Shown: in pieces, positions 1-24,157 of the stretch | How the letters are laid out: each line of letters opens with the position of its first letter | How positions within the stretch are numbered: the stretch's first letter is position 1 | Virus record (IMG/VR): IMGVR_UViG_3300031577_000185 | Location: 1 to 27,422 of that record | DNA from: a virus | Taxonomy: Duplodnaviria; Caudoviricetes | DNA length: 27,422 bases | Strand: one strand, 5' to 3' | Notes under the pieces: generated by a model | Told to the model about the DNA's origin: nothing | Seen by the model: only the letters and a program-made list of their open reading frames with translations | The model's database searches: none | Program-made: the position numbers and the translations under genes

Positions 1-867
1 ATGACAGGGATAACACGAAAAGAAGCGGCACAAGTGGTGGCAAGTTATTTTACTAGCCAAATCCAGCATCAGGGCGGTTCCTATGATGAATATTGGATAG
101 TAGACAGCAAGGGAAGAACTTGGAAGATGGTCAGTGATTCTAGTATTCACGCCATGAAAAAAACACAGGGACATTTGGTTTCTGCTGGTAACGAGTATAA
201 AGTAGAACTGGTAAGCCCCATTTTAACCTATGAAGACGTAGAACCTTTGCAAGAACTGATTCGCTTGCTTCGAAAAGCAGGGGCGGTAAGCGACAGCCAG
301 CATAATTGCGGTATACACATTCATGTGGATGCCAAACCGCATACCCCGAACAGCCTAAAAAATCTGGTGAACTTAGTGGCCAGTAAAGAGGAATTGCTGT
401 ATAAAAGTTTAAACATTGATTACGCGCGAATCAAATATTGCAAAAAAGTGAATGAAGACTTAGTACAGAAAATTAATAATAAAAAGCCAAAAACTATAGA
501 AGCCTTAGCCGATATTTGGTATGAGAACTACGGTACAGAAAGCCGAACACGACATTACCATAACAGTCGCTACCACGGCCTTAACTTGCACAGTACATTT
601 ACCAAAGGTACCATTGAGTTTCGGCTTTTTAACGGAACGCTGCATGCCGGAAGAATAAAGGCCTACATTCAGTTTTGTTTAGCCATTAGCTATCAGGCAT
701 TAAAACAAAAAACGGCAAGTGCGAAACGAAAAGTAACCGATAATGAAAAATACACCTTTCGCTGTTGGATGCTTCGGCTGGGGCTTATCGGTAAGGAATT
801 TGAGACCTGTCGCTATCATTTTCTAGCCAATCTTACTGGTGACTCCGCGTGGAGAAACGCCGCCTGA
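1..867 (+). CDS. Putative amidoligase (Amidoligase_2 / COOH-NH2 ligase family), probably 5'-truncated by the window
   Basis: Motifs ELVSPIL, CGIHIHVD, RYHGLN, TIEFRLF. The family's N-terminal FGxExE motif is missing just before MTGITR, so the true start is likely upstream. Confidence 0.85.
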   Translation: MTGITRKEAAQVVASYFTSQIQHQGGSYDEYWIVDSKGRTWKMVSDSSIHAMKKTQGHLVSAGNEYKVELVSPILTYEDVEPLQELIRLLRKAGAVSDSQHNCGIHIHVDAKPHTPNSLKNLVNLVASKEELLYKSLNIDYARIKYCKKVNEDLVQKINNKKPKTIEALADIWYENYGTESRTRHYHNSRYHGLNLHSTFTKGTIEFRLFNGTLHAGRIKAYIQFCLAISYQALKQKTASAKRKVTDNEKYTFRCWMLRLGLIGKEFETCRYHFLANLTGDSAWRNAA

Positions 868-879
868 AATGTAACTAGA

Positions 880-922
880 TAAGGGGCTGTAAGCCCCTTA
901 ATCCGCCAAGTGTTCGAGGCGG
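880..922 (+). other. Two adjacent intergenic stem-loops without a U-tract
   Basis: taaggggct-gta-agcccctta (880-900) and ccgcc-N10-ggcgg (903-922). Confidence 0.55.
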
Positions 923-942
923 TAGAGCGAAAGGAGCAAATA

Positions 943-1398
943 ATGCAAACAAAACTTTACGCTGCTTACGGCAGTAATATGAATCTAAGCCAAATGAAAA
1001 AACGCTGCCCCAAGGCGCGAGTTGTAGGAAACGGAGGCCTATTGGGTTACCAATTGACGTTTCGGGGAACTCAGTCTGGGGTAGCGAATGTGGAAGTAAT
1101 TAATAACGGTAAAGTGCCGGTGGTATTATGGGAGATCACAAACGAATGTGAAAAATCGTTGGACCGCTATGAAGGGTTTCCGACGTTATATACCAAGAAG
1201 TTAGTAGAGGTTGAGACTCCAGTGGGAACGGAAAAAGTGATGGTGTATGTGATGACTCGGCAGTATGAAAGCAAGCCAGCATTACCTAATGAATACTATT
1301 TTTCTACCATCAGCCAAGGATATCAAGACAATGGTATTGATATAGCATTTTTACAGGAAGCATTGGAACGATGCAAAGCTGAACTAGGAATAAAATAG
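943..1398 (+). CDS. Gamma-glutamylcyclotransferase (AIG2/GGCT-like) family protein
   Basis: YAAYGSNM and LDRYEG motifs; SD aaggag before ATG 943. Confidence 0.88.
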   Translation: MQTKLYAAYGSNMNLSQMKKRCPKARVVGNGGLLGYQLTFRGTQSGVANVEVINNGKVPVVLWEITNECEKSLDRYEGFPTLYTKKLVEVETPVGTEKVMVYVMTRQYESKPALPNEYYFSTISQGYQDNGIDIAFLQEALERCKAELGIK

Positions 1399-3655: not shown

Positions 3656-4537
3656 ATGCTTAAAGACTTTAGCAACTGGGAAGTTTATGATGGTGCTCAT
3701 GAAGGTAGCGGACGCAGTGAAAAAATATGGTTAATAAATTCGGTAACTGGTCAAATTGGTTTATTTAAATTTAAAAAAGATTTAGAAACCAAGGACCATG
3801 TATCGGAAAAGTTAGCATCTGACTTAGCAGCATTATTGGAAATCCCTTGTGCCCAAGTGGAAATAGGTACTTTTAAACAACGTGAAGGGTCCATGAGTTA
3901 TTTGATTAATAAAGATAGTGAAGAACTTATTGAGGGGATATCACTTATTAATCAATATTATCCTAATTATAGTGCCGAGAAAATGTATGATAGTTCGTTA
4001 GATGAACAATATTCAATACACATGCTGGTCAAGTCAATAAGAAAATATGGGCTTCTTAAAGATCTGTTAAAAATGCTTGTATTTGATTATTTGATAGGAA
4101 ATTCGGATCGTCATCAAAATAATTGGGCAATAATTAAACAAGGAGATGGAATATATAAATTCTCTCCATTGTACGATAATAGCTCATCTTTGTGTTGTTA
4201 TGTAACAGAAGATAAGGTGCAGCAATATTTGGGAAATGATCTAAATCGATTGTATTCGCTTGTTAGGACAAAATCTAGGTCAATAGTAAGAATTGATGCG
4301 AAAAGAAAAATAAGACCAACGCATGAAGAATTATTAATATATATAAATCAGCATTATCATCATGAAGTGAAAGAATTTATAGATTTGGTCAAATTGAAAA
4401 TTAATGATGTTAGTTTAAACGAAATATTAATGAAATATCCTGAGCCAGTATTGAGCCAAAGTAGAAAAAATCTAATCAAGCGCTTTATAATTGAAAAGGT
4501 TAAGTTAATGGTGATCATTGACAGAAAGGAGGCGTAA
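3656..4537 (+). CDS. HipA-like (CtkA-type) Ser/Thr kinase, core domain only; putative toxin
   Basis: Gly-rich GSGRSEK, LFKF, SEKLASDLA, catalytic FDYLIGNSDRHQNNW, Mg-binding SPLYDNSSSL; visibly AT-rich relative to the flanks. Confidence 0.85.
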   Translation: MLKDFSNWEVYDGAHEGSGRSEKIWLINSVTGQIGLFKFKKDLETKDHVSEKLASDLAALLEIPCAQVEIGTFKQREGSMSYLINKDSEELIEGISLINQYYPNYSAEKMYDSSLDEQYSIHMLVKSIRKYGLLKDLLKMLVFDYLIGNSDRHQNNWAIIKQGDGIYKFSPLYDNSSSLCCYVTEDKVQQYLGNDLNRLYSLVRTKSRSIVRIDAKRKIRPTHEELLIYINQHYHHEVKEFIDLVKLKINDVSLNEILMKYPEPVLSQSRKNLIKRFIIEKVKLMVIIDRKEA

Positions 4538-4538
4538 G

Positions 4539-5255
4539 ATGTCTATAAAAAATGGTAGGGACTATCTTGAGCTAGTTTGGAAAGATCCAAAATCGAAGCG
4601 AAGATATGTAGTTGGTGAATTGTCTAGAAATGGACAATTTGAATTTTCGTATGCGAATGAGGTTCACGCGGCCATAGATGCAGGCTTTGAGTTACTAATT
4701 GCTTTTCCTGATATTGATAAAACATATAAAAATGAAAATTTATTTCCAGTATTCGCAAGCCGATTACCTGATCCAAAAAGAAAAGGCATTGAAGCCATCC
4801 TTAAAAAATATGGTGTGTCAGAGTATGATGCATATAAACTTTTAAAGAGTAGTGGTGCAAGATTACCCATTGATAATTTGGAGTTTATTGATCCTATATT
4901 TGATTTAGAGTCGGAAAAAGTGGTAAGGAACTTTTACGTAGCTGGTACCGGTTTTTGCCTTGGCTGTGAAGGTTCAAGTTGTAAAGAATCTATTGAAGTA
5001 CAGTTGAATGAAGAGTTGAGATTAGAGCCTGAACCGAAAAATAGACATGATCAACATGCAATAAGAATCACTAACAATGTAGGGGCATTGCTGGGATACT
5101 TACCTCGCTATTATGCTAAGGGCGTTAGCCAACTTATGCGAAATAATGTTACAATCACGTGTAAGGCTATCGAAATTAACAAAACGAGTGAATGTTTAGA
5201 GTGTATTAAAGTTGAATTGACTATAGAAAAGGACAAAAATTGGAGCACCTGTTAA
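4539..5255 (+). CDS. HipS-like N-terminal domain + C-terminal HIRAN domain protein; putative antitoxin/sensor
   Basis: N-terminal VGEL..FEFSY, LFPVFASRLPDPKR, LPIDNLEF; HIRAN signature LEPEPKNRHDQHAI...LGYLPRYYA; SD aaggagg before ATG 4539. Confidence 0.82.
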   Translation: MSIKNGRDYLELVWKDPKSKRRYVVGELSRNGQFEFSYANEVHAAIDAGFELLIAFPDIDKTYKNENLFPVFASRLPDPKRKGIEAILKKYGVSEYDAYKLLKSSGARLPIDNLEFIDPIFDLESEKVVRNFYVAGTGFCLGCEGSSCKESIEVQLNEELRLEPEPKNRHDQHAIRITNNVGALLGYLPRYYAKGVSQLMRNNVTITCKAIEINKTSECLECIKVELTIEKDKNWSTC

Positions 5256-21839: not shown

Positions 21840-22277
21840 ATGGTCGAATATACACAAACTGAACTGCGAATCATGGCGGTGTTTTCTGCTGTGGGCGCAG
21901 TTTTTTCTTTCCTTATTGGTGGTGTAGATACGTTGGTGAAAGCTCTGCTTATTTTTATTGCGATGGATTACCTGACCGGTGTTATTGCTGCCTGGAGTAC
22001 GGCTGATTTAAATAGTAAAAAAGGGTTTGAAGGGATTAAACGAAAACTGGTCATGCTGCTTGTGGTCATTGTTGCCAACTGGATCGATATGGCTCTCTTT
22101 GGTAGCAGTGCGTGTAGATCAATGGTGATTTTCGCGTATTTAGGTAATGAAGGGTTAAGCATTATGGAAAACGTAGATCGGATGGGGTATGGCAAGATGA
22201 TTCCGGCGATTGTTCGAGAAAAACTTTTGCAGCTTAGAGAAGAAAAAAAGCCGGGTTCAAAAGAGGATAACCTCTAA
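21840..22277 (+). CDS. Phage holin (toxin secretion/phage lysis holin family)
   Basis: Hydrophobic segments; DYLTGVIAA, SKKGFEGIKRK, NEGLSIMEN. Confidence 0.92.
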   Translation: MVEYTQTELRIMAVFSAVGAVFSFLIGGVDTLVKALLIFIAMDYLTGVIAAWSTADLNSKKGFEGIKRKLVMLLVVIVANWIDMALFGSSACRSMVIFAYLGNEGLSIMENVDRMGYGKMIPAIVREKLLQLREEKKPGSKEDNL

Positions 22278-22331: not shown

Positions 22332-22922
22332 ATGAAGATCATGTTAGATCCGGGACATGCGGGAAGAACGGTTGATCCTGGTGCGGTACATGCCAAATCT
22401 GGTTTACAGGAAGCCGATGTTGTTTTAGTCGTTGCGCAGCTGGTTAAAAAATATTTAACGGCTGCGGGGCATGAAGTACAGCTTACCAGAAATACTTGGG
22501 AAGATAAGAAAGCCGATGAACTGAGTTATAGAACCGCTTTATCTAATGAATGGGAAGCAGATGTTTTTGTATCCCTGCATTGTAACAGTGCGGAAAACAA
22601 AGAGGCCAAGGGCTTTGAAGTTTGGACTTCACCCGGCAATACCCGCGGGGATCGGTTAGCGAGCTATATATATGAAGAAATCCATAAGGAGTTTTCAGAT
22701 CGTAGAGGAAGAACCGATTATTCAGATGGGGATGCGGATAAGGAATCGCACTTTTACGTATTGGTGTATACTGCCGCACCAGCGTGCCTGATTGAAATGG
22801 CCTTTATATCAAATGATGAGGAAGCGGCTATGCTAGAAAACTTAACTTGGCAGGATCGCTATGCAAAAGCCATTGCCCGAGGAATTACGGATTACGCAGC
22901 TGAGATAAGTAAAGGCCTATGA
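22332..22922 (+). CDS. Endolysin, N-acetylmuramoyl-L-alanine amidase (Amidase_3), catalytic domain only
   Basis: LDPGHAG, EAD, FVSLHCNS, ACLIEMAFISN; no C-terminal cell-wall-binding domain. Confidence 0.93.
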   Translation: MKIMLDPGHAGRTVDPGAVHAKSGLQEADVVLVVAQLVKKYLTAAGHEVQLTRNTWEDKKADELSYRTALSNEWEADVFVSLHCNSAENKEAKGFEVWTSPGNTRGDRLASYIYEEIHKEFSDRRGRTDYSDGDADKESHFYVLVYTAAPACLIEMAFISNDEEAAMLENLTWQDRYAKAIARGITDYAAEISKGL

Positions 22923-23512
22923 GTTTTTATAGGCCTTGGAGATGGATTTTACTTGTTCCCTTCCTATTAATATTTACAATTTGTGCAGTCTGGTTCTATC
23001 AACGGACTACAGGTGAAGATGCGCGGCAAGCGGTTTTATTTAACAAAGAGCAAATGCAAGATGCAGATTTTGTAGCCCGAAAACTCGACGTGGCACAGCT
23101 GGAAGCCCAAGAGTTGGTGGAGGCATATAACCGAAAAGATACCAAGCCTGCGGTTAGCTTTATTGTAAAAGCACAGTCGCTTGAAAAAGCGGCAGAACAG
23201 GTTAAGGGACGGATTAATTCACATGATCCGTCCTTGCCGCTTGCGGCGCAAGCAGAAAGTGATCGTACTGTAGTGGTTAAGAACGATACGGCGTATAAGG
23301 TAGATGTGCTAAAGATTAACCTGGATAAGTCTTGGGAGATTTCGCTGGGGCTTGGCAGTCACCAGGGGGATGTGTATGTGCCTGTAGCCATGCAGCGAAA
23401 TTATGATGATCATCGTGCGGTGGCGGTTGAGTTTCATATGGCTCCAGAAGACGTGGTACGGGTAAAAATAAAGACCTCCGGGTGGGAGGTTAAACATGTA
23501 TGGCGCTATTGA
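22919..23512 (+). CDS. Membrane-anchored lysis-cassette protein; candidate spanin-like outer-membrane disruptor
   Basis: ATGA overlap with the endolysin; N-terminal TM helix, helical mid-region, four C-terminal amphipathic beta-strands ending in an aromatic residue. The CDS is solid; the function is inferred. Confidence 0.5.
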   Translation: MSFYRPWRWILLVPFLLIFTICAVWFYQRTTGEDARQAVLFNKEQMQDADFVARKLDVAQLEAQELVEAYNRKDTKPAVSFIVKAQSLEKAAEQVKGRINSHDPSLPLAAQAESDRTVVVKNDTAYKVDVLKINLDKSWEISLGLGSHQGDVYVPVAMQRNYDDHRAVAVEFHMAPEDVVRVKIKTSGWEVKHVWRY

Positions 23513-23561: not shown

Positions 23562-23702
23562 ATGTTAATAAACAGAAATTCGATTAGTGCTACTGGAAAT
23601 GCGGCTGATAGTAGAATAAAAGCAGAAAAACAGGAAGTAATATCGTCAGTAGCTAAAGCCGGAAAGAAATACGCAAAAATGCTCACTCAATTAAGTAAGT
23701 GA
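23562..23702 (+). CDS. 46-aa putative Doc antitoxin (MLINRNS...KAGKKYAKMLTQLSK)
   Basis: Translated by hand; SD aaggag; GTGA overlap with the doc start; C-terminal helix resembles Doc-neutralising peptides. Confidence 0.65.
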   Translation: MLINRNSISATGNAADSRIKAEKQEVISSVAKAGKKYAKMLTQLSK

Positions 23703-24106
23703 AACTGCTGGATGTTGAGCATATACTTGAAATACATGAATATGGTATAAAAAACTTTTCGGGTTGAAGTGGATTGCGTTCTGATTCCTTAGAAAAATTG
23801 GAGTCGATTTTGGCGCAGTAGTACCCATTTTTTGATGTGGAACGGTACCCTACTTTATTTGAAAAGGCGGCCATGTTACTTTATTTCTTAGTCAAAGGAC
23901 ATTGCTTTCCCGACGGAAATAAGCGAGTTGCAGTGTTAGCGGCGATTGTATTGTTAGATATTAATGGCTATGAGACAATATTTACGGATGAGGAAGGCTA
24001 TGAGATAACTATGGAGGTTGCTGCTTCCAATGTTTCTGAGGAAAACCGCCTAAGCTACATTCAGTGGTTGGCAAAATGGTTAGAGCAATACAGCCAACCG
24101 TTATAA
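23699..24106 (+). pseudogene. doc: Fic/Doc (death-on-curing) toxin with two in-frame stop codons
   Basis: Frame from GTG 23699 reads MKLLDVEHILEIHEYGIKNFSG*SGLRSDSLEKLESILAQ*YPFFDVERYPTLFEKAA...HCFPDGNKR; TGA at 23765-23767, TAG at 23819-23821. Confidence 0.85.
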
Positions 24107-24120
24107 ATTTTATATTATGT

Positions 24121-24157
24121 ACTGTTGCTTTATAGTAGGCAACAGTTTTTTATTTTT
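24121..24157 (+). terminator. Rho-independent terminator
   Basis: actgttgctt-tatagt-aggcaacagt followed by T runs. Confidence 0.78.

Follow-up and report, generated by a model that had tools for sequence, protein, structure and literature searches.

A candidate single-chain spanin with a predicted C-terminal barrel anchor in the lysis cassettes of Negativicutes phages

Kongari et al. 2018 (PMC6139136) distinguish two spanin classes, both proposed to pull the two membranes together after loss of the wall, and report no spanin in 91 of 677 phages (~13%) of Gram-negative hosts. Both known classes need an outer-membrane lipoprotein, whereas the Negativicutes are without Lol. The lack of LolA in this class is stated in PMC5007114 and PMC5491611, in the parts of these papers available to us, the latter noting that its evidence against lipoproteins in the outer membrane falls short of proof. 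Our own search found LolA in none of 101 Negativicutes genomes while returning E. coli as positive, and lysis proteins with the usual lipid anchor can probably not be delivered to the outer membrane of these hosts. The available text of PMC6139136 remarks that an outer-membrane protein could serve as an o-spanin and contains neither the word "Firmicutes" nor "barrel". In the accessible portion of a diderm-Firmicute prophage survey (10.1101/606087), Negativicutes phages group with monoderm-Firmicute phages and "spanin" does not occur; a peptide route for spanin-less phages is presented in the part seen of 10.1101/515445.

Among the closest described systems is the u-spanin T1 gp11, which, in the available text of PMC6139136, is a single chain encoded by the last gene of its lysis cassette, with one inner-membrane helix and a periplasmic part of ~100 residues with beta content, features shared by the protein presented here. 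Whereas gp11 is an N-terminal outer-membrane lipoprotein with a C-terminal helix, our candidate carries its helix at the N-terminus, is without a conserved lipobox and has four C-terminal strands as its predicted outer anchor. The lambda Rz/Rz1 and T7 18.5/18.7 spanins resemble it in the type II N-terminal anchor of Rz and in lying behind the endolysin or, in T7-like genomes, within the terminase block, but the candidate lacks a coiled-coil stalk, an embedded or neighbouring lipoprotein gene and a match to PF03245. Family profiles scored at most 6.3 bits against lambda Rz/Rz1, T7 18.5/18.7 and T1 gp11, and an Rz-like PHROG was matched by one of 60 family members (E 2e-4). With the YadA/Hia trimeric autotransporter anchors the candidate has in common a C-terminal four-strand meander of ~58 residues with an aromatic end; unlike them it has no cleaved signal peptide and no long helix before strand 1, so that its N-terminal part would stay periplasmic rather than being exported. 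The Pfam YadA_anchor model (PF03895) matched none of 60 members at E<=0.01. A precedent from the same host class is the long MlaD of Veillonella parvula, described in the available part of PMC10665443 as a single polypeptide that begins with a helix in the inner membrane, ends with a barrel in the outer membrane and is found in both membrane fractions; it is, however, encoded on the chromosome and transports lipids, and its 419 aa include an MCE domain and a barrel of ten strands; comparison by Pfam found no homology to our family. The nearest named look-alike by language-model features (0.92) is the DUF6808 (PF20647) group of phage proteins, assigned to 15-24% of cluster members, with a fold match to the candidate at E 1e-3; the DUF6808 Pfam model matched none of 60 members at E<=0.01, and our literature search found no paper on this group, whose function is unknown.

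The stretch of DNA analysed here, referred to as the window, spans 27,422 bases in which terminase, portal, capsid, tape-measure and tail genes precede a lysis cassette made of a holin, an Amidase_3 endolysin and, closing it, the single gene for the 197-aa candidate (Table 1). The candidate ATG at 22919-22921 overlaps the endolysin TGA at 22920-22922, bearing out the translational coupling that had been proposed from the sequence. No signal peptide was seen in the endolysin. The candidate matches PHROG 10797, of unknown function, at E 2.6e-52, and a Pfam scan assigned no family to it and none common to the family members. Immediately before the terminase (window 1-1398) lie Amidoligase_2 and gamma-glutamyl cyclotransferase genes, a pair often tied to cell-wall modification. 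Between terminase and portal (3656-5255), a HipA-like kinase gene is inserted together with a Couple_hipA/HIRAN gene, likely as toxin-type or defence cargo. The candidate gene is followed by a Doc-like remnant and then by two long ORFs read as serine recombinases from their sequence; the remnant region (23562-24106, GC 0.37) comprises a short ORF and a partial Fic/Doc ORF, is ended by a terminator-like hairpin at 24121-24146 and looks like degraded toxin-antitoxin cargo. A promoter scan was at chance level (5 found against 6.8 expected). A search of 50,697 annotated phage records with three query proteins was negative, which means that no cultured phage is at hand.

Table 1. Positions of the lysis-cassette genes, of the predicted segments of the candidate spanin, and of the overlapped gene pairs found in other Negativicutes loci.
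Feature	Position	Strand	Remarks
Holin, Phage_holin_4_1 (PF05105)	window 21840..22277	+	Pfam E 3.1e-33; PHROG 199 holin
Endolysin, Amidase_3 (PF01520)	window 22332..22922	+	Pfam E 1.9e-46; PHROG 435 endolysin
Candidate spanin, 197 aa, PHROG 10797	window 22919..23512	+	Single-chain, predicted barrel tail; ATGA overlap couples it to the endolysin
Predicted uncleaved inner-membrane anchor, residues 9-27	window 22943..22999	+	Aromatic belt at its end
Predicted periplasmic alpha/beta domain, residues 28-138	window 23000..23332	+	T7-like subfamily has an unrelated-looking beta-rich linker instead
Predicted outer-membrane anchor, residues 139-197	window 23333..23509	+	Four amphipathic antiparallel strands, terminal aromatic
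Overlapped gene pair	L485:2457-2958; L496:2588-3050; L502:2945-3395; L505:2425-2854; L509:2422-2866		Also in L480, L498, L499 and L507

Homologue searches returned 460 proteins, reduced to 162 representatives at 50% identity; of the 150 representatives listed, 121 of 160-240 aa were kept, and two more were dropped by eye as chimeric. The PHROG 10797 profile was matched by 44 of 60 members. The same C-terminal tail is carried behind two types of linker, defining two subfamilies. Our literature search, with subscription papers and supplements outside its reach, found no description of the family. The feature is real, conserved and specific, and it stands outside the u-spanin, Rz and autotransporter families.

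Close relatives of the window protein are named for Anaeroselena agilis, a Negativicute, and Anaeromusa acidaminophila. A GTDB motif scan yielded 51 loci, 47 of them under genus names that we take to belong to the Negativicutes; the remaining four are most similar to Veillonella or Acidaminococcus loci, weakly so in the case of L134. Three contigs carry Streptococcus or Lachnospiraceae host labels, which we disregarded because misbinning is likely. Locus L117 is 96% identical to a Veillonella locus over 5.3 kb and L102 is 79-83% identical to Acidaminococcus loci; L134, with 0.7-1 kb of similarity, is the weakest case for misbinning. In samples that include incomplete genomes, 118 of 401 Negativicutes genomes (the class of Anaerovibrio) had any match and 70 a match at E<=1e-10, against 14 and two strong matches in a phylum-wide sample of 401, both strong ones also present in the class set; the other 12 have E>=2e-4 and alignments that stop before the strands. 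The profile of the second subfamily found 41 of 301 class genomes and one of 401 phylum genomes, this one being the centre itself. Among the genomes searched, then, the family is confined to Negativicutes rather than being common in phages of monoderm hosts.

Linkage to lysis genes was assessed in 178 partly redundant loci, 166 of which contain a member and 152 also enough upstream sequence. A same-strand peptidoglycan hydrolase lies nearby in 146 of the 152, within 150 nt upstream in 123, and the linkage persists in 18 of 20 sequence clusters at 60% identity, so homologues are tied to lysis genes well beyond the window. The neighbouring hydrolases belong to five unrelated families (Amidase_3, Amidase_2, GH25, Peptidase_M15_3 and VgrG3-like C-terminal); a search with the window's own endolysin as query returned four loci, all distant. 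The second subfamily, which shares the tail but not the linker, occurs in T7-like prophages whose terminase matches T7 gp19 at E 1.9e-183, and the large terminase adjoins it in 73 of 74 loci. The usual gene order there is holin-like genes, endolysin, small terminase, large terminase and family member, with the member placed between endolysin and small terminase in L058 and L066; in T7 itself the spanins lie between the terminase genes. With the large terminase gene intervening, a lysin was recognised in 34 of 60 loci of this subfamily within the 3.5-4 kb fetched, and most of the 25 loci without a lysin match come from one clade of near-identical phages. In L022 (3302-3919) and L223 (677-1273), the endolysin slot holds a ~200-aa protein that neither Pfam nor PHROG matched and that is probably a peptidoglycan hydrolase of unrecognised type. 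Loci L179-L268 (for example L200, L191, L223 and L243) are integrated T7-like Negativicutes prophages, in which the terminase is a near relative of T7 gp19 and the family member is followed by a small excisionase-like gene. In some T7-like prophages the gene immediately before the member encodes a membrane protein of ~60 aa with two helices (L200:3814-3996; L191:3809-3988), for which no PHROG match was found.

The slot behind the endolysin is not always filled by this family. We surveyed the top 40 of at least 81 listed Phage_holin_4_1 matches in Negativicutes genomes, 38 of which were informative (two end too early), and the top 20 from other Bacillota, assigning slot classes by eye from the ORFs. 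The 38 Negativicutes loci comprise 10 with the family, seven with a look-alike helix and strand tail (five of these matched by the family profiles at E 7e-6 to 4e-3), nine with an overlapped gene pair, one hybrid and 11 with no candidate; neither family nor pair was found in the 20 other-Bacillota loci. The pair consists of two genes fully overlapped in different frames after the endolysin, the first encoding a type II coiled-coil protein and the second a protein with a signal peptide, a coiled coil and a C-terminal short hydrophobic helix, without a canonical lipobox; in L480 the partner has a strand-like aromatic tail in place of this helix. This layout recalls Rz/Rz1, PHROGs labels none of these proteins a spanin, and we regard the pair as a candidate lipid-free two-component spanin. 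The hybrid protein (L500:2444-3007, 187 aa, PHROG 37316) combines an N-terminal helix and the second type of linker with a C-terminal hydrophobic helix, and is, judged by its predicted segments, a swap of outer anchor, helix for strand tail. Pair and family never co-occurred, and a profile of the pair partner found no match in loci L001-L394 or in four proviruses. Of the indirect evidence for a spanin slot, this mutual exclusion with an Rz/Rz1-like pair is the strongest; what speaks most against the family being necessary is the set of 11 empty cassettes. Five of the 11 are of a type known from monoderm genomes. These lie in L472-L475 and L477, where recombinase-like genes follow and no spanin-like gene is present; they could be defective, recently acquired or misbinned. 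A conserved soluble-looking protein of 95-120 aa, with no family match, lies between or after lysis genes in several Negativicutes cassettes, namely L113 (1168-1536), L482 (2672-2968), L483 (3046-3351) and L484.

These neighbourhood data also bear on whether the protein simply happens to be located at the prophage end, as a moron, a membrane protein of superinfection exclusion or a part of the virion. In favour of such a passenger, that end is an insertion hot spot, where the Doc-like remnant of GC 0.37 follows in the window, and 11 of 38 cassettes are without any candidate. The gene itself, however, is coupled by ATGA to the endolysin at nearly the same GC (0.46 against 0.45 for the lysin), and its relatives sit directly behind five unrelated endolysins, intervene between endolysin and small terminase in L058 and L066, and are common to long-tailed and T7-like phages, which together render a passenger role quite improbable.

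The expected lipoprotein partner of a conventional spanin was sought at several levels. No lipobox ORF was found on the + strand of the window, with a detector that recovered four of four controls (lambda Rz1, Bor, T7 18.7 and T1 gp11) without a ribosome-binding-site filter and two of four with it; the absence of a lipoprotein o-spanin ORF and of a canonical lipobox, as noted in the preliminary description, is thereby upheld. A nearby lipobox ORF was seen in 10 of 166 loci, where it is mostly a holin helix or a short frame and in one case a host binding protein, and across the 166 loci no linked o-spanin lipoprotein gene is conserved as a partner, nor is any other partner gene conserved downstream of family members. 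None of four complete proviruses carrying the family, nor one partial record, has an Rz match (PF03245), and the four complete ones hold no lipobox ORF preceded by a ribosome-binding site; without that filter, strict lipobox matches in the proviruses come from short frames that run on the other strand from the family gene. Within the family, the query has no lipobox, a strict pattern finds one in three of 121 members and a loose [GAS]C pattern in 16 of 117, at unconserved positions. A non-canonical lipobox was considered and rejected: the query Cys is not preceded by a small residue, and the Cys position is unconserved in the family.

In the predicted structure, a single chain has a putative anchor at each end. 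AlphaFold2, run with a 95-sequence alignment, modelled the 197-aa protein with a mean pLDDT of 91.4 as a helix (7-31) and, at the C-terminus, strands 139-148, 151-161, 166-178 and 183-195. The best hydrophobic 19-mer is residues 9-27, in agreement with the N-terminal transmembrane helix first proposed, and the four quoted amphipathic strands with their terminal aromatic residue, located in the sequence at 139-148, 151-162, 166-174 and 188-197, are likewise recovered as a meander whose pattern is kept family-wide. Rather than the helical linker that had been described, the model places between them a compact mixed domain (helices 43-71, 88-100 and 108-111; strands 38-42, 116-122 and 127-133) with no helical stalk; these short helices and strands form no coiled coil of the kind that characterises Rz-type i-spanins. 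For the second subfamily the model is confident in helix and tail and poor in the linker (mean pLDDT 72.5), and the median length of the periplasmic part is 115 and 97 residues in the two subfamilies. To judge the N-terminus by a simple pattern test, 15 OmpM-type host proteins drawn from 30 SLH loci served as controls. At least 12 large hydrophobics within 19 residues were present in 103 of 117 family members against none of the 15 controls, while AxA in the cleavage zone was present in 18 of 117 against 15 of 15. The N-terminus thus looks anchor-like, and this comparison favours an uncleaved type II inner-membrane anchor over a cleaved signal peptide.

Across the 95- and 60-sequence alignments the alternating lipophilic/polar pattern of the strands is kept; each strand has one face that is lipophilic family-wide, and the opposite face carries conserved Gly, Tyr, Pro and charged residues. 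Fold searches of the PDB gave no match at E<=0.001, neither subfamily model reached Z>=8 against any structure, a profile search of solved structures returned nothing below E 0.18, and the significant matches in a viral structure library were uncharacterised phage relatives only. The likeness to trimeric autotransporters advanced in the preliminary description was not established: YadA-type anchors superpose on the tail with an rmsd of 2.5-3.0 A over 55-58 residues at E 0.01-0.08, below significance, Hia (Z 4.9) and AtaA (Z 5.1) score level with unrelated sheets, and the window subfamily has no pore-filling helix before strand 1. A covariation analysis used 307 tail sequences, which count as ~115 effective ones and belong almost entirely to the long-loop subtype; it picked up the three hairpin registers 1-2, 2-3 and 3-4 at z 7.7, 4.5 and 6.0. 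An antiparallel diagonal between strands 1 and 4 reached z 2.6-3.8 over nine settings and was equalled in none of 80 shuffles, with 142-194 the fifth strongest covarying pair and with the antiparallel diagonals 1-3 and 2-4 at z <2. Since strand 1 of a four-strand meander can pair with strand 4 only between chains, this signal bears on barrel closure. It is carried by few pairs of inward-facing residues (outward-facing pairs have z 1.2), its register is the transitive one that chained indirect couplings would give, second-neighbour parallel diagonals reach a similar z, and a tree-aware test, with 2-6 supported pairs, had too little power to bring even its positive controls to significance. We take the covariation as a hint of homo-oligomeric barrel closure that gives no subunit number. 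With an even number of strands, the tail would begin and end in the periplasm, and no part of the chain would need to be exported.

The same strands could instead lie outside the outer membrane, as a periplasmic sheet. The chain would then be a type II inner-membrane protein that either works as an i-spanin, together with a partner from the host or one that escaped detection, or regulates holin or endolysin. The best structural matches of the sheet are indeed generic and mostly soluble proteins (Z<=6.0), and the periplasmic domain of T1 gp11 is beta-rich too, according to the available text of PMC6139136. Against a soluble sheet, all four strands present a whole lipophilic face that is ringed by aromatics across the family, a terminal F/W/Y is found in 107 of the 121 full-length representatives among those listed just as all 15 host OmpM-type controls end in F, and no downstream partner gene is conserved; we consider a periplasmic location of the strands highly unlikely.

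We therefore favour, with a probability of roughly 0.6, a single-chain spanin anchored in the outer membrane by a barrel. Counted for it were the slot, the host range, the lack of LolA, the anchor-type N-terminus, the substitution of other genes in the slot, the covariation and the MlaD precedent; counted against the spanin part of this reading were the lack of similarity to known spanins, the 11 of 38 empty cassettes and the lysin linkage in 34 of 60 T7-like loci. The preliminary description had placed a spanin in the Rz/Rz1 slot with the reverse topology of a u-spanin. Its slot and coupling were substantiated and the elements of its topology are predicted, while the spanin role itself we infer at the same odds. 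In the proposed mechanism, Sec would insert the protein N-in, with the N-terminal helix staying uncleaved in the inner membrane. Terminal aromatic strands of outer-membrane proteins engage BamA, and in the same way the host BAM could insert the four strands into the outer membrane, where the tails of several chains may close a homo-oligomeric barrel. The resulting bridge would be trapped in the wall until holin and endolysin have acted, and with the wall removed it would draw both membranes together and break the outer membrane, plausibly by membrane fusion. The modelled periplasmic part is compact, at ~110 residues far shorter than the MlaD bridge, and would have to extend or act where the membranes are close. 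An outer membrane may well persist alone, given that OmpM ties it to the wall and that, on loss of OmpM, cells share a detached outer membrane, as described in the part of PMC10628300 available to us.

A lysis protein could also weaken the outer membrane without fusing it to the inner one, either because the strands form an oligomeric pore or because the signal at the C-terminus blocks BamA or dislodges the OmpM tether, with the helix serving only to time and localise the action. Slot, host range and anchor fit this equally well. The conserved charged or polar residues at inward-facing positions (E140, Q159, E171, H173 and E190) are as expected of a pore, and a linker that is exchangeable between subfamilies suits a tether better than a precise fusion machine. 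Nearly all members nonetheless keep a full inner-membrane anchor that a simple pore would not need, and the other occupants of the slot are coiled-coil pairs with the gene layout of Rz/Rz1, so that we judge this mode of action unlikely.

In summary, a barrel-anchored single-chain spanin would be a concrete, small and testable answer to how phages cross the outer membrane of diderm Firmicutes, in the genetically tractable genus Veillonella. More broadly, and at somewhat less than even odds, Negativicutes phages may descend from monoderm-Firmicute phages, infect Lol-less hosts and possess a lipid-free spanin toolkit of their own, with a third class that joins an inner-membrane helix to a self-assembling outer-membrane barrel and fuses the membranes. 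In its slot this class would be exchangeable for a coiled-coil pair from overlapped genes, the outer partner of which is held by a C-terminal helix or hairpin in place of a lipid. If the proposed reading is true, membrane-fusion proteins would gain a member that is anchored by a barrel, and studies of BAM would gain a simple case of a folding substrate still tied to the inner membrane; the combination of helix, linker and strand tail offers a search pattern for missing spanins elsewhere.
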